Source of the DNA: Pseudomonadota bacterium
GTDB taxonomy: Bacteria > Desulfobacterota > Desulfobulbia > Desulfobulbales > SURF-16
Assembly: GCA_030597865.1 (NCBI GenBank)
Contig: JAUVQZ010000002.1
Location: 1-45,526 of the forward strand
Length of the DNA stretch: 45,526 bases
Direction of reading: 5' to 3'
Shown here piece after piece: positions 1 through 38,262 of this stretch. The position numbers and the translations under genes were made by a program. The stretch's first letter is position 1; every line of letters starts with the position of its first letter. The notes under the pieces were generated by a model. The model was not told the origin of the DNA, did no database searches, and worked only from the letters and a program-made list of their open reading frames with translations.

Positions 1-367
1 CCTCCCGTAGGAGTCTGGTCCGTGTTCCAGTTCCAGTGTGGCGGATCATCCTCTCAGACCCGCTAACCATCGTAGCCTTGGTAGGCTCTTACCCCACCAA
101 CTAGCTAATGGTACGCAAACTCATCCAAATGCGATAGCTTCCAAGGAGAGGCCATCTTTCTTCACTTTATCTTGCGATTAAGTGAACGTATCAGGTATTA
201 GCTAACCTTTCGGTCAGTTATTCCAGACACCTGGGTAGATTATCTACGTGTTACTCACCCGTGCGCCACTTTAATAAGTTCTCCGAAGAAAACCGTTCTC
301 GTTCGACTTGCATGTGTTAAGCACGCCGCCAGCGTTCGTTCTGAGCCAGGATCAAACTCTCCAGTTT
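1..367 (-). rRNA. rrs: 16S ribosomal RNA, 5' portion only (gene continues past the left edge)
   Basis: The reverse complement of 341-360 is AGAGTTTGATCCTGGCTCAG (universal 27F site). The reverse complement of 1-14 is ACTCCTACGGGAGG (universal ~338-351 region). The 5' end is placed by E. coli numbering, +/-5 nt. Confidence 0.95.
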
Positions 368-22507: not shown

Positions 22508-23809
22508 ATGATCAGAGACCCCGAGCCCAAAAAAAAATCAACCAAGCATCTGCCCGCCGGTGATGTGCGCAGTTATGTCAGGGTGCTGCGCCGCAACCCC
22601 CACTTTAGGCGTCTCTGGCTTGCCGGGGTTATCAGCCATATCGGCAACTGGTTTAACTATATCGGCATCTTTGTCCTGTTAAACGAATACACCGGTTCCG
22701 GGCAGGCGGTGAGCTGGTTTCTCATTGCCAAGTTCTTGCCCTCTTTTCTATGGGGACCGGTTGCCGGCGTCATTGCTGACCGCTTGCCGCGCAAGATGAT
22801 CATGATTGCCGGTGATCTTAGCCGGGCCCTCATTGTGCTCGGTTTTCTCTATGTTGATGATGCCAGCCGCCTCTGGCTCATCTATGTCCTGGCCCTGGCC
22901 CAGGAAACCGTCTGGACATTCACGGATCCGGCCCGGCGGGCCTCCATCCCCAATCTCTGTGCCAGGGAGGAGCTCAAGGTTGCCAATAGCCTCAACGGCG
23001 CAACCTGGTCTGTTATGCTGGGGGTGGGAGCTGCCCTGGGGGGCTATGTTTCCGCCCGTTTTGGCTGGCAGACCGCTATTATTGTCGATGCGGCAACCTT
23101 TATTGTTTCGGCCGCCCTGTTGACCGCCCTGCCCCTGCCCCACCGGCCCCGGGAGAAACAACCGGTAAAAACATGGTCAACCATGCTGGGCCTCACCGAC
23201 CTCAAGGAGGGCTGGAGTTACATTATCCACCACCCAAAGACAGCCCGCCTCATGCTGGTGAAAAGCGGCTGGGCCATGGCCGGTGGTATTTTGGTCATGC
23301 TCACCATTTTTGGCGAACAAATTTTCGGGGGGGAGGGCGGCGGCAAGAGCGGCGTGCTCTACTCAGCGCGTGGCGCCGGCGCCGCCCTTGGCCCTTTAAT
23401 GGCCTGGAATATATTTGGCGAGGAAAAAAAAGATATGACACGGGCCATCGGCTTTGGCTTCTTCATGGCTGCCGCATCCTATCTCTGCTTCAGCCAGGCC
23501 ACCTCACTCTGGCTGGCAGCGCTCTTTGTCTTCTCTGCCCATCTTGGCGGCTCCGTCCAATGGGTCTTCTCAACAACACTGCTGCAGGAGATGGTGGAAG
23601 ACCGCTTCCGGGGCCGTGTTTTCGCAGCGGAGATGGCTCTTGTCACCCTGATTCTGTCCATCTCCACCTGGTTCACCGGCTTTGTCCTTGACCTGGGGGT
23701 GGCGCCCCGTCTGGTCACTGCCGGGCTGGCAACCTGCTTTCTCCTGCCCGGCCTGGTCTGGAGCCTGTCCGAACGCCGTCAATCAGAAGATCCATCAAAA
23801 AAGCAGTAG
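22508..23809 (+). CDS. MFS transporter
   Basis: The 433-aa ORF has about 12 hydrophobic segments and a GVIADRLPRK loop motif. Its 3' end overlaps the convergent maturase gene by 31 nt. Confidence 0.85.
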   Translation: MIRDPEPKKKSTKHLPAGDVRSYVRVLRRNPHFRRLWLAGVISHIGNWFNYIGIFVLLNEYTGSGQAVSWFLIAKFLPSFLWGPVAGVIADRLPRKMIMIAGDLSRALIVLGFLYVDDASRLWLIYVLALAQETVWTFTDPARRASIPNLCAREELKVANSLNGATWSVMLGVGAALGGYVSARFGWQTAIIVDAATFIVSAALLTALPLPHRPREKQPVKTWSTMLGLTDLKEGWSYIIHHPKTARLMLVKSGWAMAGGILVMLTIFGEQIFGGEGGGKSGVLYSARGAGAALGPLMAWNIFGEEKKDMTRAIGFGFFMAAASYLCFSQATSLWLAALFVFSAHLGGSVQWVFSTTLLQEMVEDRFRGRVFAAEMALVTLILSISTWFTGFVLDLGVAPRLVTAGLATCFLLPGLVWSLSERRQSEDPSKKQ

Positions 23810-25365
23810 GGATCCTTCTCAGTAAAGACATCCAGGCCCATGCCATGGCTTACGGCCAGGCAACCGCCACAGACAGCCCGTATTTTACAGTCATTGCAGG
23901 CCTGGGATCCTGCCCGGTATTTGCGGGCCGCCTCAGAGTGATAGATCTCCGACAGGGTGCTTTCACAGGTATTACCGATGTGGGACGGAAACTTACGGCA
24001 GGCATGGACCTCGCCCTCGGCCAGAAGCGACAGAAAATTGAAGGCCGCCCCACAGCCATAGCCCGTACAACCGCCAAACAGCTCCCTGCCATCTTTGGCA
24101 AACAAGGTGTTTAGATGATTGTCCTTGAGCCCCATACAGGGATTGGCCAGGGAGGCCTCATAATAGCGACGCAGGAACCCCCCATAGCCCTTGGTGGGCG
24201 CCGACAGGAGCTGGGCACCTTCGCCCACCATGGCCAGCCGATTGAAATTAAAGAGATCAACCTTGCCCCTGAGAACCTCGGCCAGGGGCAAAACCTGCTC
24301 CTGGTTCTCCCTGGTCAGGGTCAGCATGACCATGGAATAGATGCCCAGGTCCTTTAAAATGGCCAGAAACTCGATGGTCCGTCTAAAATGACCGGCACCA
24401 CGGATATGGTCATTATGCTCGGAAAGACCCTCCAGGCTGACCTGGTAAAATTCAAGGGGCTGGATGGCCTGCAACTCCTCAAGGCTCTCCCTTGGCGCAG
24501 GATTACCAAGAATCGCCAACTGAAAACCACGGGCAGAGGCGGCCTGGTAGAGTTCGCTAAAACGGGGATAGAGCAAAGGATTGCCACCGGTAAAGGTCAC
24601 CTGACCATAGACATGGTGCTCCCGGCAGAAGGCCCGGAAATCATCAAGAATGGTGAGTGCCTGGTCATATGCGACGGCCGTGCGGCTCGTCCGGTCGTAG
24701 CAATGTTTGCAGTGGAGATCACAGGCCTGGGTAATATGCCATTGCAGGGTAAAGGCCGATGAGGAGAGATACCTCTTGGCCGTGACATCATTTGCCTTAA
24801 AAACAGAGGGATCCCGGCGGATGGTGGTTTCCGGGACCAGGATGTACTCCTCGTCTTCAGCCCGTTCCAGGATACGGTCCAGATAGGCCAGGGTCACCCC
24901 ATGCTCGACAGCCGCCTGGGCCAGGTCAACATCCTCTTCAACAAGCTTTAAGGCCAGAAGATCCTGGGGGCCGGCATTTTTATAGCGCACCGCGCCACTG
25001 GCAAGGCGCCAGACCAATACCAGCTGTTCGCCCGGCCTGCCCTCCTCATCCCGGCCGGCCAGGATGGGGGCAAGATTCTGCCAGGGAAACTGGGCAAGTC
25101 GAAGGGTGGGATTAACAATGCCCCTTTCAACAGGGGGGGCCGGATCCACCTCAAGCCGTTCCACCTCCGCCACCAGCTCCTCAAGGCGGGCAAGATCGGG
25201 GAGAAAGGGGGGCAGGTGGAAATCTTTCACATGGCTGGCCAACCAGTCGGCCATGCCAAGGGATGGCCGCTTATCATTGGCCCGGAGGGATTGGGCAAGA
25301 ATTGCCTGGGAACGTGGGTAATCGGAAATCATCTCTATGGGTACCACCTGGATCTGATCCTTCAA
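23779..25365 (-). CDS. sbtM: radical SAM/SPASM-domain peptide maturase, SbtM-like (thio(seleno)oxazole-forming family)
   Basis: The sequence has a CDLHCKHCY (CxxxCxxC) SAM cluster and a Cys-rich SPASM C-terminus (CGGCTGYGCG...CRKF...CNDCKIRAVCGGC). A ~200-aa N-terminal extension precedes the radical SAM core. The gene lies directly downstream of a Sec-encoding peptide gene. The start is uncertain among TTG 25365, GTG 25347 and ATG 25332, because a terminator T-run abuts 25365. Confidence 0.78.
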   Translation of the reverse strand: MKDQIQVVPIEMISDYPRSQAILAQSLRANDKRPSLGMADWLASHVKDFHLPPFLPDLARLEELVAEVERLEVDPAPPVERGIVNPTLRLAQFPWQNLAPILAGRDEEGRPGEQLVLVWRLASGAVRYKNAGPQDLLALKLVEEDVDLAQAAVEHGVTLAYLDRILERAEDEEYILVPETTIRRDPSVFKANDVTAKRYLSSSAFTLQWHITQACDLHCKHCYDRTSRTAVAYDQALTILDDFRAFCREHHVYGQVTFTGGNPLLYPRFSELYQAASARGFQLAILGNPAPRESLEELQAIQPLEFYQVSLEGLSEHNDHIRGAGHFRRTIEFLAILKDLGIYSMVMLTLTRENQEQVLPLAEVLRGKVDLFNFNRLAMVGEGAQLLSAPTKGYGGFLRRYYEASLANPCMGLKDNHLNTLFAKDGRELFGGCTGYGCGAAFNFLSLLAEGEVHACRKFPSHIGNTCESTLSEIYHSEAARKYRAGSQACNDCKIRAVCGGCLAVSHGMGLDVFTEKDPYCFFDGSSD

Positions 25366-25367
25366 CG

Positions 25368-25407
25368 ATAAAAAAAATCGGGTTTACCGCCAGCTCCGGT
25401 AAACCCG
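25368..25407 (-). terminator. intrinsic terminator/attenuator between the precursor-peptide gene and the maturase gene
   Basis: On the minus strand, CGGGTTTACC (25407-25398) pairs with GGTAAACCCG (25388-25379) across a 9-nt loop. ATTTTTTTTAT (25378-25368) follows. Confidence 0.7.
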
Positions 25408-25478
25408 ATACAAATCATGAAGGTGCAACCTGCACCTTGCAGTAGAAATCCTGTCGGCAATGGCTGCCAGAAAGACTC

Positions 25479-25847
25479 CTACTTTTGGCTGCCTCAGCTG
25501 GAACCTGCAGCACCCTTCTTTTTCTCGACACTCCCGGTGTCGGGATGGGCGCCTCAGCTTGAGCCTGCTGCATCTTTTTTCTTTTCGACACTCCCGGTGT
25601 CGCCTTTTGTACCACCTCAGCTGGAGGCGGCTGGATCAGCCTTTTTATCAGTGCTCACGGCACTGTCTTTTGTCCCGCCTCAGCTGGATCCTGTCTGATG
25701 CTGCCCCTTGTCGGCGCCACCTGCGCCGGTTTTAGGAGGGCCTCAACTACTACCTGCATGGGCCCCGGGAACAGCAACTCCTGCTCCGGCAATGAGTCCG
25801 GCCAGACCGAACCGTGCCAAAGTTTTCTTGAGTTCCTTGACTTCCAC
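25479..25847 (-). CDS. tandem-repeat peptide with five in-frame UGA (selenocysteine) codons; SbtA-like RiPP precursor candidate
   Basis: GTG 25847 lies 6 nt after GGAGGAGG (25861-25854). The frame reads MEVKELKKTLARFGLAGLIAGAGVAVPGAHAGSS U GPPKTGAGGADKGQHQTGSS U GGTKDSAVSTDKKADPAASS U GGTKGDTGSVEKKKDAAGSS U GAHPDTGSVEKKKGAAGSS U GSQK, then TAG (25481-25479). The TGA codons are at 25745-25743, 25682-25680, 25619-25617, 25556-25554 and 25496-25494. The first four each have a downstream SECIS-like hairpin. If the fifth TGA is the true stop, the CDS is 25494..25847. Confidence 0.72.
25526..25542 (-). promoter_or_regulatory. SECIS-like hairpin 4
   Basis: Minus-strand CGACAC-CGGGA-GUGUCG begins 11 nt after UGA 4. 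Confidence 0.65.
25586..25602 (-). promoter_or_regulatory. SECIS-like hairpin 3
   Basis: Minus-strand CGACAC-CGGGA-GUGUCG begins 14 nt after UGA 3. Confidence 0.65.
25649..25665 (-). promoter_or_regulatory. SECIS-like hairpin 2
   Basis: Minus-strand CAGUGC-CGUGA-GCACUG begins 14 nt after UGA 2. Confidence 0.65.
25712..25728 (-). promoter_or_regulatory. SECIS-like hairpin 1
   Basis: Minus-strand CGGCGC-AGGUG-GCGCCG begins 14 nt after UGA 1. Confidence 0.65.
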
Positions 25848-25985
25848 GACGTTCCTCCTCCACAAAGGATTTTGTGAGATGCAGAGATTGCAGGGAAACA
25901 ACCTCCACCCATGGTGACAGAAATCAGTATGTCATAACCCATCAGCTTTTTCCACCTGCTTTTATGAACAGATAGAATTTTCCTA

Positions 25986-26849
25986 TCAGTTGCCCTGTAA
26001 AGCCAAAACCCCCTGCCACCTGTCCACCTTGCCCTGGTAAACCACAGCCTCCTCAACACGGCCATGCCTGCGGCACCCCTTCCCATAGATGGTTGCCTTT
26101 CTGACAATCTCGTTGGCCAGGGCCAGACGTTGCCGGCCCGAGCAAGACACCAGGCCGGCAACCTTTTCCATGGCCCGGATCCGGAAACGATCCATCCCCA
26201 CCCGGTAGACAGAGGAGACCTGGTCCTCACGGCCCCCCTGTTTATAGGTAAGGGGCTCATCAATTTTCAAAAAAGGATGGCAGATACTGGCCCGCAGCCA
26301 GAGTTCATAATCCTCGCAGCAGGGAAATGATTCATCAAAGAGGCCCACCTGGTCAAAAAAATGCCGCCGGGCCATGACGGTTGACATGCCCACGCAGCAA
26401 AGGGGCAAACAGTGCTCAAAGATATCGCCGCCAGGCCGGGCATGTTTGTTCTTCTGGTTTAAAAAGGCGCCGCGCCGGAACCAGATCTCATCGGTATGAC
26501 TAATCAGAAAATCAGGCTGCCCTGCCATGGCCCGAGCCTGGGTGACCAGTTTACTTTCATGCCACCAGTCATCGGAATCAAGAAAGGCCAGCAGGCCATG
26601 GCTGGCCTCCTGGATTCCGAGGTTTCTGGCCGCTGACGGCCCTTTATTTTTCTGGCCTATGGCGCGGATTTTTCTGCCATAGGAGTGCAGGACCCGGGGG
26701 GTATCATCGCTGGAACCGTCATCGATCACCAGCAGCTCAAAATCAACCCCAACCTGGGTCAGCACCGAATCAATGGCCTTTTCCAGCAAGCCACCAGCCC
26801 TATTATGGGTGGGAATAATAACAGAGACAGACTCCAGCTTCTCCATCAT
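25986..26849 (-). CDS. family 2 glycosyltransferase
   Basis: The 287-aa ORF has the GT-A signature VSVIIPTHNRAG...LLVIDDGSSDDT...FLDSDDWW. Its ATG overlaps the birA stop (ATGA). Confidence 0.88.
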   Translation of the reverse strand: MMEKLESVSVIIPTHNRAGGLLEKAIDSVLTQVGVDFELLVIDDGSSDDTPRVLHSYGRKIRAIGQKNKGPSAARNLGIQEASHGLLAFLDSDDWWHESKLVTQARAMAGQPDFLISHTDEIWFRRGAFLNQKNKHARPGGDIFEHCLPLCCVGMSTVMARRHFFDQVGLFDESFPCCEDYELWLRASICHPFLKIDEPLTYKQGGREDQVSSVYRVGMDRFRIRAMEKVAGLVSCSGRQRLALANEIVRKATIYGKGCRRHGRVEEAVVYQGKVDRWQGVLALQGN

Positions 26850-27754
26850 CAGGGGTCCAGATAGATGAGTTCACCGCCGTGCTCGACAATATCCACCCCA
26901 TCTTGAAGATGGTGCAGGACAATACCGCCGTCAGCGCAGATGGCCTTCACCGTGGCAGTGTACTGGGGGTTATTCTGGACATCGAAACCAAAGGAGACCC
27001 TCTGGCCGCAACTCTTGCACAGGGCACGATAGGAGGCCATGAAGGAGCCATGATCCCCCTCAACCTCTTCCTCCCCATAGGTGAGAAGACCTATATTCCA
27101 GCGCAGCTTGGCCAGGAGATCCAAGGCCACCCCATGGAGGTCAAAAGCATGGCCAGCACAGGTCTTCATACTGGTGGCAAGGGAGGTCAAATCTTCAGGA
27201 AACTGTGTATTGTTGACGTTAAGACCTATGCCCACCAGGATAAACTCCTCCGACGACTCCTGGCAGATAAAGGTCTCGCTGAGAATTCCGCAGATCTTCT
27301 TACCACCCACCAGGACATCGTTCACCCATTTCAGCTCACCATCAAGGCCGAACTGCCTGACAGTTTGACAGGCACTGACCCCGGCGGCCAGGGGCAAGAG
27401 CCGGGTGGTCTGGGGCAGCCACTGGTTAAACAGGGCAACCACCAACCAGAGACCGCCCTCAGGGGCATGCCAGGGGCGCCTGAAACGACCTTTGCCGCCG
27501 GTCAGGGTCTGGGCAAACAACACCGAGCCACTGGCAAAACTACGGCCCTCACGGGCGGCCAGGCGTATATGATTACGCGCCTCATCCATGGCGCGCGGCA
27601 GGCTGGGGTACTGCTTGATATGGGAGGCAACAATGGCCCCATAGCGGAAGATATCGCCGGGGGGGAAGGGAGAACCAGCAGAACGCCGGTCCATTTCTGT
27701 CTGGGCTATATAGGAGGTAAGGAGATCCGGAGAGGGGAAAGGAGCTACTCCCAT
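26849..27754 (-). CDS. birA: biotin--[acetyl-CoA-carboxylase] ligase
   Basis: The 301-aa ORF has the biotin-ligase motif TGGKGRFRRPWHAPEGGLWL. The start overlaps the upstream BCCP-like gene by 10 nt. Confidence 0.85.
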   Translation of the reverse strand: MGVAPFPSPDLLTSYIAQTEMDRRSAGSPFPPGDIFRYGAIVASHIKQYPSLPRAMDEARNHIRLAAREGRSFASGSVLFAQTLTGGKGRFRRPWHAPEGGLWLVVALFNQWLPQTTRLLPLAAGVSACQTVRQFGLDGELKWVNDVLVGGKKICGILSETFICQESSEEFILVGIGLNVNNTQFPEDLTSLATSMKTCAGHAFDLHGVALDLLAKLRWNIGLLTYGEEEVEGDHGSFMASYRALCKSCGQRVSFGFDVQNNPQYTATVKAICADGGIVLHHLQDGVDIVEHGGELIYLDP

Positions 27755-28398
27755 TCCGCCTTGACCCGGGTGATAATTTTTTCAACAAGGGGGAGAATCT
27801 CCGGCGGGCAGATTCCCACCAGGGGGTCACCCTGGTCAACACTCTGCCCCGAGGAGAAATAAACCGAATGAATAATACCGGTCTCACCCTCGTAATACAC
27901 CGGAGTATCACGCTTCATGAGTGACATGGTGAGAAGTTCATCACCGGCCTTCACATTCACCGAACGCTGACCGAACTTTTCGATACGGTTCTGGATATCC
28001 AAGGCAAAATAATACTTGGCCTTTTCCGGGGCCTTGAAGGGCACAAGGACCTCACGGAGGATGCGTTCGATGATCTCCCTCTTCTTTAAGGGATGGCGGA
28101 TGGTCATGATCTTCTCACCCGCCTCGACAAACTTCCCATCAAGATCAGAACGGAGGAAAGAAACCTCACCATTGGCCTCTGAAAAGATCGCCTTTTTATT
28201 GCGCTCCCTTGTCAGCTCAAAGAGCAGGGTACCCTTGATATGATGAAACTCTCCAGTTGTTCCCTCAACCTTGCCACCCTCACGGACATTAAACTGGATC
28301 GTACCGCTGTGCTTGCTGAGGATATCCTCATAGGCAAAAGGATCCTGCCTGTACTGGCTTAATATGGTGTCGTAATCTATTTCATTTTGCATGGACAT
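27745..28398 (-). CDS. biotin/lipoyl-attachment (BCCP-like) protein, atypical 217-aa form
   Basis: The C-terminal hybrid-barrel motif VKAGDELLTMSLMKRDTPVYYEGETGIIHSVYF...GDPLVGI carries a candidate biotinyl-Lys in SLMKR. The gene sits between the carboxyltransferase and birA. Confidence 0.7.
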   Translation of the reverse strand: MSMQNEIDYDTILSQYRQDPFAYEDILSKHSGTIQFNVREGGKVEGTTGEFHHIKGTLLFELTRERNKKAIFSEANGEVSFLRSDLDGKFVEAGEKIMTIRHPLKKREIIERILREVLVPFKAPEKAKYYFALDIQNRIEKFGQRSVNVKAGDELLTMSLMKRDTPVYYEGETGIIHSVYFSSGQSVDQGDPLVGICPPEILPLVEKIITRVKAEWE

Positions 28399-28418
28399 AA
28401 CCTAGGAAAACGGCCTGA

Positions 28419-30665
28419 TTAACGGTAGTACAGGCTCTTGCCGCCCATCGTCATTAACGACTTGTGGAGATTAAGGCGGAATTCGCGCCGATCCCAGATA
28501 CCATGGATATGACCACGTTTCAGGGCATTACGGGCACTATGATAATCGGGCGGAATCTCCTCCCCTGTGGTGTCACGGATAACACGGGGGCCGGCAAAGC
28601 CGATCCGGCTGGAACGGATGGCAAACTGATAATGGGAGCATCCCAAAAAGCTGGCCACCGGTCCGGCGTATGAGTTGTTGTCGTACACAACGATATACAG
28701 CCCGCCGGCATCAACATATTCACGGACCGCCATGGTGCATTTGGGCATCTGGGTAACCCCCAAAGTCCCCTCCTGGATGCGAATACCACCCGTGGTATGG
28801 ACATAGGAGAGCAATGGCCGCCGCATCATCCGGGCCCGTTCAGCAGCCTGGACGAACTTCTCACCCTCGGTGGAACCAACGGTGCCGTTGCGGAAGTTGG
28901 AGTAGAGCATGGACACCACCACCTCAACGCCCATTACCCGGGCATCAAAGGTGATCATGGAGCTGCGCCGCCCTGTTTTCTTCATGGCAGCCTGCAACCG
29001 TTTTTCAAAACCTGGGGCCCTTAAGGGATTGCCAGCCGTGAGCTCCTCATTAAATTCCCGGATGGAATCTCGATCAAAGAGATGCTTGAGATACCACTCA
29101 TACTCCAGGGGAAAATGATGCCCGCATGTTTCACAGACACCGCCAAATTCACCATAGAGATCAGGCACCCACAGGTCTTTACAGCCAGCGCGCTCCGCGT
29201 TTGGACAGGTTACGGTGCGATCCTCATTGGCCAGGGGACTGGTGTAGGTGTCGTCGTATAATTCTTCACTGTCAACAGGGGGAGCCCCTATCTTGATGGC
29301 CTTGGAGGTCGCCTTACGGCTGAAAAGACCAAGGATTCCGGCAAGGGGGCCAGCCACCTGTTTGATGACCGCCGTGCTTTCACCGGTGACATCACGCATG
29401 ACCTGTTTGACCTGTTTGCTATGGCTGTGCAGCAGATCATAACGAAAATTATAGAAATATTGACTGCTCTTCTGACGCATGCGCTGGGCCAGTCCGCCGA
29501 GCAGGGTCCCCTTCTTACGGATACCCTGGGAGGCCATGTTGCGATACTTCTTGGACCTGAGTTCCAGTAACCGTCGAACCTCTTCAGAATTGAGCTCCCA
29601 GGACACATCGATATGGGGATCTTCAGGGTTCTCATCTTCGGAGCGCTTCAACTTCAGCTCATAGGCCCGGAAGGCCCGCAGACTCTTGGTCTTCAGAACA
29701 ACCTCATCCGTGGCGCGGACCATCTCAAACTTGACACGTTTGAAAAAGGCAAAATCATCGCGTTTGCCACCCAGACGCGGCTCATCAATGATCCGGTCAA
29801 TGGTGCGCAGGCGCAGATTCTCCCTGGAGGTAATCTTCAAGCGCTCGGCGCAGGACTCAACGGTTTCAGGGGGCAGCTTCTGCCCTTCACGAATCTTGCC
29901 CTCAATGGCGGCCGCTCCCTCTGGGGAGATGACCGAGTAATAGCCATGGGAAAACATCATCCTATAATCAGAAAGACCAATGGCCTCGGCACCACCGGAA
30001 CCACCCTCGGAAATAAGGGAGATAATGGGCACCCTGAGCTTGGTCATGGCAAAGATATTGCGGGCAATCTGCTGGCCGGCGCCAGGATAATCCTCAATGG
30101 GAAAGGAGCCGGGGGTAAAGATATAAGAGTGGATGGGGATGCCCTCGGTCTGGGCCACATACATAAAACGCAGGGCCTTCTCATTGCCCCAGGGCTTACT
30201 ACAACCGCCGTTGCGATACTCCTCACCATGCCCCTTTTCATGACCAATCACCATGACCTGCTGGGTCACGGTCTGGCCCTTCACCTGGGCGGAGATGGTG
30301 GCCTTGGCACAGACCATGGACGGATCAACGGAGGCCTCCTCCTCACCACCAAGCTCGGTGTATTCGTCATACACATTTTCCAGGATGTCCTGGAGGGAAA
30401 AGCGCAGGGGACTCCGGACAATGCGAACCCGGTCCATGCTGGTCAGGCTTTCGTCTGCCCGCTCCTCAAGGAGGATCAATTCATCTTCCAGGCCCTTGAT
30501 CTTGGCAAGGAGGGCGTCTTGGCTGAGGTCAAAAATGGCGGCGCGCACCGAGCCGAAACGCTCCTGCAGGCCAGCCACGTTACCCCAGGCCGAAGAACCT
30601 TTTACCTGAATGAGGTAATTGATTCTCTCATCTATTTTTAGCAATCGCTTTCGTATTTCTTGCAT
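28419..30665 (-). CDS. acetyl-CoA carboxylase carboxyltransferase, fused alpha (N-terminal) and beta (C-terminal) subunits
   Basis: The 748-aa ORF has an AccA-like half (VMVIGHEKGHG...FTPGSFPIEDYPGAGQQIARN...SEGGSGGAEAIG...SVISPEGAAAI). It also has an AccD-like half with a Zn ribbon (CPN...C...CETCGHHF) and TGGIRIQEG. Confidence 0.88.
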   Translation of the reverse strand: MQEIRKRLLKIDERINYLIQVKGSSAWGNVAGLQERFGSVRAAIFDLSQDALLAKIKGLEDELILLEERADESLTSMDRVRIVRSPLRFSLQDILENVYDEYTELGGEEEASVDPSMVCAKATISAQVKGQTVTQQVMVIGHEKGHGEEYRNGGCSKPWGNEKALRFMYVAQTEGIPIHSYIFTPGSFPIEDYPGAGQQIARNIFAMTKLRVPIISLISEGGSGGAEAIGLSDYRMMFSHGYYSVISPEGAAAIEGKIREGQKLPPETVESCAERLKITSRENLRLRTIDRIIDEPRLGGKRDDFAFFKRVKFEMVRATDEVVLKTKSLRAFRAYELKLKRSEDENPEDPHIDVSWELNSEEVRRLLELRSKKYRNMASQGIRKKGTLLGGLAQRMRQKSSQYFYNFRYDLLHSHSKQVKQVMRDVTGESTAVIKQVAGPLAGILGLFSRKATSKAIKIGAPPVDSEELYDDTYTSPLANEDRTVTCPNAERAGCKDLWVPDLYGEFGGVCETCGHHFPLEYEWYLKHLFDRDSIREFNEELTAGNPLRAPGFEKRLQAAMKKTGRRSSMITFDARVMGVEVVVSMLYSNFRNGTVGSTEGEKFVQAAERARMMRRPLLSYVHTTGGIRIQEGTLGVTQMPKCTMAVREYVDAGGLYIVVYDNNSYAGPVASFLGCSHYQFAIRSSRIGFAGPRVIRDTTGEEIPPDYHSARNALKRGHIHGIWDRREFRLNLHKSLMTMGGKSLYYR

Positions 30666-30721
30666 AAGATATAAAACAGATTCTTCTTTTGGTGGGGGGA
30701 ATCGTGTTCCCGCACCACCTC

Positions 30722-32128
30722 CTAAAAGGTCAACAACCTGTCAATATTCTCCTTTAAATACTCAAGGTTGGTCATCATTGGTTCACCATTGCTGGTCTCG
30801 CCTTCAATGGTTACCTGACTCAGAAAACTTAAGCCCCGCTCTTTGGCCTCGGCAATGGACTTGCCCCAGACCAGAGCCAGGGCCAGGTTTGGATCAAAAT
30901 CACTGGGAATGGCATAGGAGCGATCCGTGGGGACCTGGGTGTAGACAGCCGACCACGTATGCTCTGGGAACTTAAAGGTGTTAATGGTACCGATCCAAGG
31001 GGCGAAATCACGGCTGGTATCCTCGGCAACGATACGAAACTCGATACAGGCACCCTTAAACTCGATGCGGCGCTGACTGTAGCCGATCTTCTCGCCAAGG
31101 GCGACCCTGATTTGTTCCCTGATAAGGTTGGGTTGTTTTTTCTTGTAATAGGAAATTCGAGCTGAAACATCATTTTCAACCTGAATACGTGTGTTTACCT
31201 CAAGAAGATAAGGGCGGCCGTTGCGGGCAACGATCCACTCCCATGTCCCAACATTATCATAGCGGACATGTTTGGCAAGCTTGAGGGAGTATTCAACGAT
31301 CTGCTCCTGGAGCTTTTCGGCATCAAAATCGTAGTCAAAACAGCTATTGTCAAAGCCGGGGGCAGCCTCGAGACGTTTCTGGCGGCCCGTTGACTGGATG
31401 GTACAGTTTCTGGTCCCGAAATGGATCCGTTCACCATGCTTCGAGCAGAGAAGCTGAACCTCAAGATGATTATAATCGCGCAGGCATTGCTCAATAAGAA
31501 CGCCACCATCACCAAACTGGCGCTTGGCGTAATTCTTGATTTCCCGATAGGTACGCCGAAACTGCTCTATCCGGTTGACCTCTTCAATACCCATACCACC
31601 GCCGCCGGCAGCGGCCTTGACCAGGATCGAAGGGTTCTCAATGCCCTGGTTCCGCTGGTCATCAAGGAGTTTGGCGGCAATGGCCTCTGCCTCCATCTCA
31701 TTATAGATGGGGGCGGATGTGCCGGGAATGGTGGGAATACCAAGTTCGTTGGCCACCTTTTTGGTGTTAATCTTGTCACCAAGATCCTTAATCACCTCCC
31801 ATTTGGGACCGATGAAGACCAGGGGCCGATCCCGCAACGTGACCCGGCGGGCAAAACGGAAATCCTCTGAGAAAAAACCATACCCCGGATGGATGGCTGT
31901 ACAGCCGGTGTGATCTGCAATGGAGAGTATTTCATTGGGGTCGGTGTAACTTGAGATGCGCCAGACCTTCTGGTCGGCACCGCTGCCGCCGGCATAACGC
32001 CGGACATGCTCGGAGTCCTTATCCGGATCCGTATATACCATTACAAAGTCAAGACCGAGGTCTTCACAGGCAGTGGCTATCCTGATGGCGATCTCACCTC
32101 TATTTGCAATCAATACCTTAGCTTTCAA
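30722..32128 (-). CDS. accC: biotin carboxylase
   Basis: The ORF begins at TTG 32128 after GAGG and reads MKAKVLIANRGEIAIRI...HPGYGFFSE...KAAAGGGGMGI...NHLEVQLL. Confidence 0.9.
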   Translation of the reverse strand: MKAKVLIANRGEIAIRIATACEDLGLDFVMVYTDPDKDSEHVRRYAGGSGADQKVWRISSYTDPNEILSIADHTGCTAIHPGYGFFSEDFRFARRVTLRDRPLVFIGPKWEVIKDLGDKINTKKVANELGIPTIPGTSAPIYNEMEAEAIAAKLLDDQRNQGIENPSILVKAAAGGGGMGIEEVNRIEQFRRTYREIKNYAKRQFGDGGVLIEQCLRDYNHLEVQLLCSKHGERIHFGTRNCTIQSTGRQKRLEAAPGFDNSCFDYDFDAEKLQEQIVEYSLKLAKHVRYDNVGTWEWIVARNGRPYLLEVNTRIQVENDVSARISYYKKKQPNLIREQIRVALGEKIGYSQRRIEFKGACIEFRIVAEDTSRDFAPWIGTINTFKFPEHTWSAVYTQVPTDRSYAIPSDFDPNLALALVWGKSIAEAKERGLSFLSQVTIEGETSNGEPMMTNLEYLKENIDRLLTF

Positions 32129-35046: not shown

Positions 35047-36151
35047 ATGTCAGCAGAACTCCAACAGAAACTCCAAGGCTACAAAGACCGCCTTCTCACC
35101 TTACAGGTGCATCTTTGACCTAGCCGGCAAACAAGGACAGCTTGCCGAGCTTGAACACCAGACCATGAACCCGGACTTCTGGAATGATCCGGACAAGGCC
35201 CGCCAGACCCAGATTGCCATTGGCCGTCTGCAGGACCCCATTGATGGCTGGCAGGGCTGCTACGACATAGTTGAGGATGCGGAAATACTCCTTGAGCTAG
35301 CCCGTGAGGAGAAGGACGCCGATACCGAGCAGGAGGCTGGCGAGACCATTGCCTCCCTTGAAAAACGCCTGGAAGATTTTGAGCTTGAATGCATGTTCAG
35401 CGGTGAGCATGACAACAGCAATGCCATGCTCACCATCCATGCCGGTGCCGGCGGCACCGAGGCCCAGGACTGGACCGATATGCTGCTGCGCATGTTCCTG
35501 CGCTGGTGCGAGAAGAAAAATTTCCAAACCGATATTCTTGACCTGCAGCCCGGCGATGAGGCAGGGGTCAAGAGTGTCACCCTGATGATCAAGGGCAAGT
35601 ATGTCTACGGCTATCTGCGCTCCGAGGTGGGTATCCACCGCCTGGTCCGCATCTCCCCCTTTGACACCAGTGGCCGCCGCCACACCTCCTTTGCCTCGGC
35701 CTTTGTCTTTCCAGAACTTGACGACGACATTGAGGTGGAAATTATCGACAAGGACCTACGTGTCGATACCTACCGGGCCAGCGGCGCCGGGGGCCAGCAT
35801 ATCAACAAGACAAGCTCAGCAATCCGCATCACCCATATCCCCACCAATATTGTCGTCCAATGCCAGAATGAGCGTTCCCAGCATCGCAACAAGGAGACGG
35901 CCATGAAGATGCTCAAGACCCGCCTCTATGAACGGGAACAGGAGCTGCAGAGGGAACAGCATGAGGTCATTGGTGGAGAGAAAAAAGAGATCGCCTGGGG
36001 CAGCCAGATCCGCTCCTATACCATGCAACCCTATCGCCTGGTCAAGGACCACCGCACCAATCAGGAGAGCGGTAATGTCGAGGCGGTCATGGATGGTGAT
36101 CTCGACCCCTTTATCAAGGCCTACCTCCTATGGCAGGGCAACAACAAATAG
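35047..36151 (+). CDS. prfB: peptide chain release factor 2, programmed +1 frameshift (join 35047..35115, 35117..36151)
   Basis: Frame 0 reads MSAELQQKLQGYKDRLLTLQVHL and then meets CTT-TGA-C (35113-35119), with SD-like AGGTG 3 nt upstream. The +1 frame continues DLAGKQGQLAELE...SPF...GGQH(I)NKT (SPF and GGQ motifs). Confidence 0.93.
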
Positions 36152-37410: not shown

Positions 37411-38262
37411 ATGAAACTACACAGGCATATCATTGTTACCCTTATCGCCCTCTATTTGCCGGCATCGGCCCTGGCGGCCATTGACTGGTCTGTTGACCAA
37501 AGCATTGAGACCAAGGCTAGCATCAAGCACATGGCCCCATCCTTTGACGGCAACAGCCTCTTTGTCCTCACCGGCACCAACGAGCTTGTCATGTATGATG
37601 CCTCAGGAAAGGCCCTGGGAAGCATGAAGGTTGATCCAGGCATGGACCAGATCCACCTGAGCGGTTTTCAAAAGGCCGGCGTTCCTGAACAGATCTTTGT
37701 GGCAAACTCGGCCACCGGCCAGATCCAGAGGCTCTCCTTCAGCCTGGTGGCCAAGATTGACCTCAGCGGCAGCCCGTTCCTCGGCAATGCTGACGCCCCG
37801 GTTGCCCTGGTGGTGTACAGCGACTTTCAATGACCCCACTGCGCCCAGGCAGGGGCGTTACTCGAGCAGGTGCTCGAGCAAAATCCAGACACCGTAAAAA
37901 TCGTCTTCAAACATTTCCCCCTGAGCTTTCACAAACAGGCCCCAGCCGCAGCCCAGGCAGCTATTGCTGCCCATAAACAGGGGAAATTCTGGCAGTACCA
38001 CGATCTGCTCTACGAAAACCATAAGACCCTGACCGCTCAAAGCTATGAAGGCCTTGCCACCGAGCTTGGTCTTGACCTGACCACCTTTAACCGTGACCGC
38101 ACGAGCCCCCAAACCCGTCAGCAGATGAGCGCTGACATCAATGGCGGTAAACAGGCAGGTGTCACCGGCACCCCGGCCATATTTGTCAATGGCCACCGCC
38201 TGAAAAAACGGACCCTGCAGGACATCCAGGCAATGATTGACGCGAAACTCAAAAAACCCTGA
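37411..38262 (+). CDS. DsbA-family thiol:disulfide oxidoreductase selenoprotein (U-P-H-C active site; TGA 37831-37833 read as Sec)
   Basis: Track ORFs 37411..37833 and 37870..38262 are in the same frame and are separated only by one TGA. Read-through gives ...VALVVYSDFQ-U-PHCAQAG...VKIVFKHFPLSFHKQA...GKFWQYHD...GVTGTPAIFVNG. This is a DsbA fold with Sec replacing the first Cys of CPHC. Hairpins lie downstream at 37841-37858 and 37861-37878. Confidence 0.78.

Follow-up and report, generated by a model that had tools for sequence, protein, structure and literature searches.

Putative selenocysteine insertion elements in the repeats of an SbtA-family thio(seleno)oxazole precursor gene

On the 45,526-nt stretch of DNA analyzed here (the window; positions 1 to 45,526 of contig JAUVQZ010000002.1, assembly GCA_030597865.1, from a member of the Desulfobulbales), four short hairpins follow four UGA codons that lie in one reading frame. 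The question raised by this locus is whether these hairpins direct the decoding of UGA as selenocysteine (Sec) or are present for another reason. A sequence-only reading had placed the hairpins at 25526..25728 and had interpreted them as selenocysteine insertion sequence (SECIS) elements, one per repeat; these coordinates are plus-strand numbers, and the feature itself is read on the minus strand. From the sequence comparisons described here, the four hairpins are very probably bacterial SECIS (bSECIS) elements, one in each 21-codon repeat of sbtA, a gene encoding the precursor of a thio(seleno)oxazole-containing ribosomally synthesized and post-translationally modified peptide (RiPP). We infer that the hairpins bind SelB, that Sec is inserted at the UGA codons and that the peptide is modified by the maturase SbtM.

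The gene encodes a thio(seleno)oxazole RiPP precursor of the SbtA family with a full length of 122 residues; gene callers stop it after 34 codons. Translation of 25850..25380 (minus strand) gives one frame consisting of (V)EVKELKKTLARFGLAGLIAGAGVAVPGAHAGSS, GPPKTGAGGADKGQHQTGSS, GGTKDSAVSTDKKADPAASS, GGTKGDTGSVEKKKDAAGSS, GAHPDTGSVEKKKGAAGSS and GSQK, in which the successive segments are separated by five UGA codons and the last segment is followed by UAG. With UGA read as Sec (U), the product is MEVKELKKTLARFGLAGLIAGAGVAVPGAHA followed by GSSUGPPKTGAGGADKGQHQTGSSUGGTKDSAVSTDKKADPAASSUGGTKGDTGSVEKKKDAAGSSUGAHPDTGSVEKKKGAAGSSUGSQK. The in-frame UGA context was recorded as GSS-UGA-G for all five codons; the product string reads ASSUG at UGA3. 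The GTG at 25847 is the likely start codon. Residues 1-27 match NCBIfam TIGR04081 ('SbtA family thio(seleno)oxazole RiPP natural product precursor') with 36.7 bits against a cutoff of 30.5 when U is written as C. The next gene 3' of sbtA, 114 nt away on the same strand, is an equivalog of TIGR04082 ('thio(seleno)oxazole modification radical SAM maturase SbtM'; SAM, S-adenosylmethionine) with 684.9 bits against a cutoff of 350. The features of the gene pair and of the first four repeats are as follows.

25854..25861, minus strand: Shine-Dalgarno-like sequence GGAGGAGG, 6 nt 5' of the GTG start (read from the sequence)
25479..25847, minus strand: sbtA coding sequence, GTG start, 122 codons including five UGA (putative Sec), UAG stop (translation and TIGR04081)
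25743..25745, minus strand: UGA1, putative Sec codon
25712..25728, minus strand: putative SECIS hairpin 1, CGGCGC-AGGUG-GCGCCG, 14 nt after UGA1
25680..25682, minus strand: UGA2, putative Sec codon
25649..25665, minus strand: putative SECIS hairpin 2, CAGUGC-CGUGA-GCACUG, 14 nt after UGA2
25617..25619, minus strand: UGA3, putative Sec codon
25586..25602, minus strand: putative SECIS hairpin 3, CGACAC-CGGGA-GUGUCG, 14 nt after UGA3
25554..25556, minus strand: UGA4, putative Sec codon
25526..25542, minus strand: putative SECIS hairpin 4, CGACAC-CGGGA-GUGUCG, 11 nt after UGA4, duplicate of repeat 3
23779..25365, minus strand: sbtM, radical SAM/SPASM thio(seleno)oxazole maturase

Successive UGA codons in sbtA are 63, 63, 63 and 60 nt apart, which corresponds to repeats of 21 codons. 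A repeat search confirmed that the DNA is repeated as well, units 3 and 4 being 82% identical over 57 nt; the 60-63-nt repeats were not detected by Tandem Repeats Finder because they are too diverged. Orthologues of the window sbtA retain both the frame and the repeat structure. The four hairpins have exactly the sequences and offsets that the sequence-only reading had given, namely perfect 6-bp stems with 5-nt loops starting 14, 14, 14 and 11 nt after UGA1 to UGA4, and the folding that it had suggested as a check placed all four in the centroid structure of a 291-nt region. Its claim that stem changes between the repeats are compensated held for stem positions 2-5, which vary among the three distinct hairpins of the window and are compensated every time. 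Hairpins 3 and 4, however, derive from one recent duplication, and the comparison therefore involves three independent sequences and not four. The set of UGA codons was also incomplete: UGA1 to UGA4 each have their hairpin, but a fifth in-frame UGA, which has no such proximal hairpin, had been omitted.

The consensus for bSECIS elements given in PMC13188914, which is the bSECISearch model of Zhang and Gladyshev, comprises an apical loop of 3-9 nt on an upper stem of 4-16 bp, a G in the first two loop positions (mostly N1-G-[G/U]-N-N2), a distance of 16-37 nt from UGA to the apical loop and a minimum free energy of <= -7.5 kcal/mol. All four hairpins fall within the limits for loop and stem length, their loops (AGGUG, CGUGA and CGGGA) follow the loop pattern, and the distances from UGA to the apical loop are 20, 20, 20 and 17 nt. 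Two further expectations for bSECIS elements, an in-frame UGA replaced by Cys in homologues and a conserved covarying structure, are also borne out: Cys was found in L001, L012, L023, L027 and L061 (loci of the homologue set described below), and the structure covaries in the homologues. The hairpin evidence fits the published bacterial consensus and therefore supports the interpretation as SECIS-like elements, for which geometry, loop, spacing, conservation and gene identity agree.

Homologues were collected as 80 SbtM loci from species-representative genomes. In 53 of these, sbtA was located beside sbtM by its leader motif, with UGA read as U, which together with the window gives 54 sbtA genes. 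The closest SbtM loci are from metagenome-assembled genomes of Desulfurivibrionaceae/Desulfobulbaceae (79-85% identity). Nearly all located sbtA genes contain several UGA codons in [GSA]-U-[GS] contexts; one UGA was found in 6 genes, two in 16, three in 20, four in 10 and five, the highest number per gene, in 2 (the window and L011). The statement that multiple SECIS elements in one open reading frame (ORF) are rare is correct for bacteria in general, but in the SbtA family they are the norm (48 of 54 genes have at least two UGA).

A perfect hairpin of <= -6 kcal/mol starting 8-18 nt 3' of the UGA is present at 79% of the 148 putative Sec-UGA sites in these genes, compared to 7.2% in downstream sequences after dinucleotide shuffling and 7.6% at positions drawn at random from the loci. 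The most frequent offsets after UGA are 14 nt, found at 53 sites, and 11 nt, found at 20; offsets are fixed in codon steps, and the loops in the family include AGGUG, GGU, AGGUA, GUU, CGUGA, CGGGA and AGUUG. Many of the sites that failed the criterion show the same motif with one mismatch. In an independent set of 79 metagenome loci a hairpin was found at 78 of 96 UGA sites (81%). A lack of hairpins at this spacing in homologues, which the sequence-only reading had named as grounds for refuting its proposal, was thus not observed; they recur in dozens of homologues. A few sites deviate. In L035, L036 and L143 (Nitrospirota) internal UGA codons have no recognizable proximal hairpin and the terminal UGA has one, U3 of L019 is also without one, and in L008 and L052 two UGA codons 9 nt apart share one hairpin. 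Such sites may reflect SECIS elements that work over a longer distance or are shared between UGA codons.

Covariation was analyzed in alignment A1, in which 108 distinct hairpins are centred on their loops. Of these, 106 close with a C-G pair, 107 have G as the second loop nucleotide, and all 108 have G or U as the third. The other five stem pairs alternate between G-C, A-U, C-G and U-A, and double changes were observed in five of the six pairs. Paired cells amount to 96.9% compared to 75.3% in column shuffles; inner-stem pairing is partly present by construction because each hairpin was picked as the best local hairpin, whereas loop conservation and the spectrum of pair types are unaffected. 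Cells changed on both sides number 167 (39 expected), the covariation score is 0.70 (0.26 in shuffles) and was reached by none of 500 shuffles, and sliding the partner by 1-3 columns lowers pairing to 22-53%. Hairpin 2 provides an example within the window clade. Its stem reads CAGUGC/GCACUG in the window as in L003, but CAGCGC/GCGCUG in L002 and L007; the AGU to AGC difference leaves Ser unchanged, and the compensating ACU to GCU difference replaces Thr with Ala. The covariation expected in aligned homologues was accordingly found, with compensated pairs and a score above that of every shuffle.

The motif is also specific. Searching 1.3 Mb of locus sequence on both strands with a simple descriptor, namely a 6-bp stem closed by a C-G pair and a loop N-G-[GU]-N-N, gave 269 matches. 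Ninety-eight of these lie 6-20 nt after an annotated sbtA UGA (0.28 expected), and many others mark sbtA genes that the leader pattern had missed (L001, L014). A covariance model built from 91 hairpins of distant genes, without sequences of the window clade (R2), gave as its top six matches in the 45.5-kb window hairpin 1 (26.2 bits), a lookalike within the release factor 2 gene prfB (23.0 bits), a further hairpin downstream of the fifth UGA, referred to below as hairpin B (21.5 bits), hairpin 2 (19.5 bits), hairpin 3 (17.9 bits) and hairpin 4 (17.6 bits), so that five of the six are in the sbtA transcript. In the independent metagenome loci (306 kb), all 122 R2 matches with E <= 0.5 are at the sbtA position relative to sbtM. 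The family consensus of a 6-bp stem with a C-G closing pair and an N-G-[G/U]-N-N loop 11-14 nt from UGA has the specificity needed to detect sbtA genes in metagenomes and to extend them correctly.

If the hairpins are SECIS elements, decoding could proceed as follows. With the ribosome at a UGA, the hairpin 11-14 nt downstream would sit at the mRNA entrance and would offer its N-G-[G/U]-N-N loop, on a C-G closing pair, to the complex of SelB, GTP and Sec-tRNASec, and SelB would deliver selenocysteine in place of termination. The product would be a secreted peptide with a signal-like leader ending in AHA, followed by five units of the type GSS-U-G, and SbtM, encoded next door, would turn each X-Sec unit into a selenooxazole.

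Several observations weigh against this reading. Five successive recodings would give a low yield of full-length peptide unless each of them is efficient. No selA, selB, selC, selD or tRNA-Sec gene was found in the window. An Rfam scan of the whole window at the gathering threshold returned a 16S fragment only, and an E-value scan of 25350-25900 gave only chance-level matches to unrelated families, so that no Rfam family fits the hairpins. The 17-mers of hairpins 1-4 alone fold at -10.6, -7.2, -6.6 and -6.6 kcal/mol, which leaves isolated hairpins 2-4 weaker than the limit of -7.5 kcal/mol; hairpin 1 alone and all 60-nt stretches starting from UGA1-4 (-20.1, -22.1, -9.2 and -20.7 kcal/mol) pass. 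The stems are perfect and lack the bulged U17 of the E. coli fdhF element. Finally, the GAGG peptide alone can give hairpin 1, as an equivalent hairpin appeared in 32-61% of synonymous resamples of TGAGGAD, and the prfB codons for HAGAGGTE (35441-35461) form a SECIS-lookalike hairpin of 23 bits without a UGA nearby.

These last two observations speak for an origin of the hairpins as by-products of a Gly/Ala/Ser-rich peptide that is repeated and written in GC-rich codons, with selection acting on the peptide and not on the RNA; a loose motif, x-[AT]-[GV]-[GS]-[TAV], recurs after U in the homologues as well. The match of models R1 and R2 at 35441-35461 was rejected as a SECIS candidate, as it is inside the prfB HAGAGGTE codons without an upstream UGA, and it shows that GAGG peptides can give the fold by chance. 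Hairpin 1 alone is therefore unconvincing, and its frequency in resamples likewise makes it weak evidence by itself. The other hairpins behave differently: none of 500 resamples produced hairpin 2 or hairpin 3, and 3-4% produced hairpin 4. Across the family, re-encoding the 15 residues after 90 internal UGA codons with the local sbtM codon usage yielded a hairpin in 16% of cases compared to 82% observed. Three different peptides (GAGG, SAVS and TGSV) encode the same structure, and amino acid replacements compensate synonymous stem changes. At 26 terminal UGA codons the hairpin is non-coding and lies past the stop, which is often itself part of the stem (as in AAA-UAG-UGCA-GUU-UGCACUAU). A hairpin was found at only two of nine equivalent sites that are coded as Cys, and Cys-coded repeats lose both the motif and the hairpin. 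In the sbtA gene of the close relative L001 (3400..4000, plus strand), a natural Sec/Cys mosaic in one precursor, hairpins accompany the first four repeats, which are of the Sec type, and are absent from the three Cys repeats (GSSCSG / GSSCGG) that come after them; the all-Cys core of L012 is without the hairpin motif. The terminal non-coding hairpins, the synonymous control and the Cys sites together bear out the earlier argument that the RNA structure rather than the peptide is under selection, and an origin of the hairpins as by-products of the peptide is very unlikely. As the hairpins are inside the reading frame, the spacer residues (TGAGGAD, DSAVSTD and DTGSVE) are largely dictated by the RNA structure, and sbtA is a clear natural case of an RNA structure dictating the amino acid sequence of a repeat.

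Apart from the lookalike, prfB itself (35048..36151, plus strand) has a canonical programmed +1 frameshift site, CAT CTT TGA C, near 35111-35120, after a first frame of 25 codons.

It could also be argued that the UGA codons are genuine stops, that only the 34-residue leader is made and that the repeats are untranslated structures such as attenuators or stabilizers. Standard gene callers indeed end the gene at the first UGA, an intrinsic terminator and other hairpins follow the gene, and a protein database search with full-length SbtA (U as C) gave no match, presumably because gene callers truncate homologues at the first UGA. We consider this reading most improbable, since the frame is kept through five UGA codons in an identical GSS-UGA-G context, indels among orthologues are in frame, the offset between UGA and hairpin is fixed in codon steps, and the family is biochemically tied to Sec/Cys modification, which is known for a related pair (PMC9204691). 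In addition, Cys codons are found at the equivalent positions in L001, L012, L023 and L027, and the region is therefore translated. A global reassignment of UGA was rejected: UGA is the normal stop of many ordinary ORFs in the window, including sbtM, and the code is therefore not globally reassigned. The proposal that the hairpins are pause or mRNA-stability elements or non-SelB sites, with UGA read through in another way such as near-cognate suppression, agrees with the missing fdhF bulge and with the homologue UGA codons that lack a proximal hairpin, but it has hardly any probability given that the N-G-[G/U]-N-N loop, the conserved closing pair and the canonical distance are the published SelB-type signature and that a loop of this type is also present after the UGA in an unrelated putative selenoprotein gene of the window (37411..38262, see below).

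While the SECIS interpretation accounts for UGA1 to UGA4, the fifth UGA differs from them, as no consensus SECIS was found at proximal spacing in the window clade; distant lineages place one 10-18 nt after the terminal UGA. The features around this codon are as follows.

25494..25496, minus strand: UGA5, candidate terminal Sec codon in GSS-U-GSQK-UAG; the in-frame tail is kept in orthologues, with a Cys version in L001
25479..25481, minus strand: UAG stop codon of sbtA
25441..25483, minus strand: hairpin A, a conserved long stem-loop with the UAG inside its basal stem, 10-11 nt after UGA5 (fold, RNAalifold and alignment)
25420..25438, minus strand: hairpin B, SECIS-like and conserved in the clade, AAGGUGCA-GGU-UGCACCUU, 55 nt past UGA5 and separated from hairpin A by 2-3 nt
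25369..25409, minus strand: intrinsic terminator with a 13-bp stem (25409..25377) and a U8 run, between sbtA and sbtM

In relatives the tail after the terminal UGA is in frame and reads GSSK or GPGSK; it is Cys-GGQRK in L001 and DSSK in L004, where the UGA is lost. Because the tail is in frame and a Cys version exists, the region past UGA5 is very probably translated. RNAalifold on seven clade members recovered both hairpins A and B, with compensatory changes in 8 of 24 predicted pairs. Hairpin B, which was part of neither training set, reaches 20.7 bits under R1 and 21.5 bits under R2, on par with the internal SECIS elements. All five genomes with a terminal UGA have an intact hairpin B, whereas the two without this UGA have changes in it, namely a mismatch in the stem of L001 and the loop GCU in L004. 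With hairpin A folded, hairpin B is about 13-14 unpaired nt from UGA5, which is the modal SECIS spacing, and hairpin A is possibly a spacer (41-43 nt) that brings hairpin B near UGA5. We tentatively propose, as a rather doubtful possibility, that UGA5 may be decoded by a two-part downstream signal consisting of the spacer hairpin A, which holds the UAG, and the SECIS-like hairpin B; alternatively, hairpin A itself serves UGA5, or UGA5 is mostly a stop. The link between UGA5 and hairpin B comes from seven genomes, because the metagenomes added only one close relative, L081, which is frameshifted. The sbtA frame of L081 (1152.., plus strand) shifts after the second repeat, which is either an assembly error or a pseudogene. 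If true, the two-part signal at UGA5, together with distal or shared SECIS elements and five Sec in 122 codons, would extend the accepted rules of bacterial Sec recoding.

The strong terminator starts 13 nt past hairpin B, just before sbtM, and is conserved with covariation in L001-L007, which suggests attenuated read-through into the maturase gene. The start of sbtM is uncertain, the start-region alignment leaving TTG 25365, GTG 25347 or ATG 25332. Plus-strand ORFs across the sbtA region were rejected, as they are without family support, and plus-strand terminator-like calls at 25586-25602 and 25649-25665 were rejected as reverse complements of the hairpins with the complement of Lys codons.

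A second gene containing a UGA is located at 37411..38262 (plus strand), where one frame is broken only by the UGA at 37831-37833; with UGA read as U, it gives VVYSDFQ-U-PHC, a thioredoxin-fold UxxC motif. The product is a DsbA/DsbG-like lipoprotein that matches NF041057 ('Rcas_1661 family thioredoxin-like (seleno)lipoprotein') with 93.6 bits, below the cutoff of 190, and a hairpin, CUCGAGC-AGGU-GCUCGAG, lies 27 nt after its UGA. Judging from this second putative selenoprotein gene, the source organism probably decodes Sec.

Convergent with sbtM is a major facilitator superfamily (MFS) transporter gene (22508..23809, plus strand) with a weak match to a RiPP export MFS family, and the transporter is a possible exporter of the SbtA peptide. 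On the 5' side of sbtA, 26849..32128 (minus strand) encodes a glycosyltransferase, a BirA-like biotin ligase, a fused AccA/AccD-like carboxyltransferase and a biotin carboxylase; no link of these genes to the sbt genes was evident. The 5' end of a 16S rRNA gene lies at 1..367 (minus strand) and runs off the start of the window.

In the minimal SECIS of E. coli fdhF, a stem-loop of 17 nt is placed 11 nt from the UGA; G23/U24 are in its loop, and U17 is bulged, which is needed for SelB binding in E. coli (PMC8659212). The window hairpins resemble it in size (17 nt), in their position 11-14 nt after UGA inside the ORF and in a loop that holds G followed by U or G (GGU, GUG, GGG) at about the position of G23/U24; the stem sequence may likewise vary if pairing is kept. 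They differ in their perfect stems, in a loop of 5 nt (or 3 nt with an extra pair), in a modal spacing of 14 instead of 11 nt, in the absence of an obligatory long lower stem and in the presence of five elements in one short gene instead of one. Of the fdhF-like geometry that had been proposed, the size, the position and the G-[G/U] loop stood and the bulged U did not; without the bulge, the window hairpins would therefore be fdhF-like in working and not of that exact type. The loop of hairpin B, at about 63 nt from UGA5, is far beyond the distance range of the bSECIS consensus. Decoding of many in-frame UGA codons as Sec from one mRNA is described for eukaryotic selenoprotein P (SELENOP) in PMC5727441, and sbtA would resemble it in this respect. 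The SECIS elements of SELENOP, however, are in the 3' untranslated region and act at a distance on all UGA codons, whereas each UGA in sbtA has its own in-frame hairpin, an arrangement that bacterial Sec decoding requires, with UGA5 as a possible exception.

The closest known system is SbtA/SbtM itself, which has already been described; several Sec codons with one SECIS each are typical of the family. According to the accounts of the system in PMC9204691 and PMC11002830, it was predicted by Haft and Basu (2011), and SbtM was characterized by Lewis et al. (2021) in the Bandarian laboratory. The same papers already note SECIS elements for the system and give 'at least two SeCys' and a GGUG motif. 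The window agrees with this system in a leader that fits the SbtA model, an SbtM equivalog directly downstream, putative Sec in a motif of small residues ([GS]-[GSA]-U-[GS]) and a SECIS-like hairpin right after the UGA. Unlike SbtA as published, the sbtA of the window has five predicted Sec in GSSUG motifs and 21-codon repeats that each have their own SECIS-like hairpin, the last UGA being without a proximal one. A 2026 review lists the TIGR04081 family with the motif SGUG and 2 Sec, and describes prokaryotic selenoproteins as having overwhelmingly one Sec, with 'a small subset 2-3' (PMC13188914); among the genes compared here, 3-5 putative Sec per SbtA peptide are common. The five-Sec sbtA of the window would exceed these listings, and its distant hairpin B behind hairpin A bears on the distance rule for bacterial SECIS elements.

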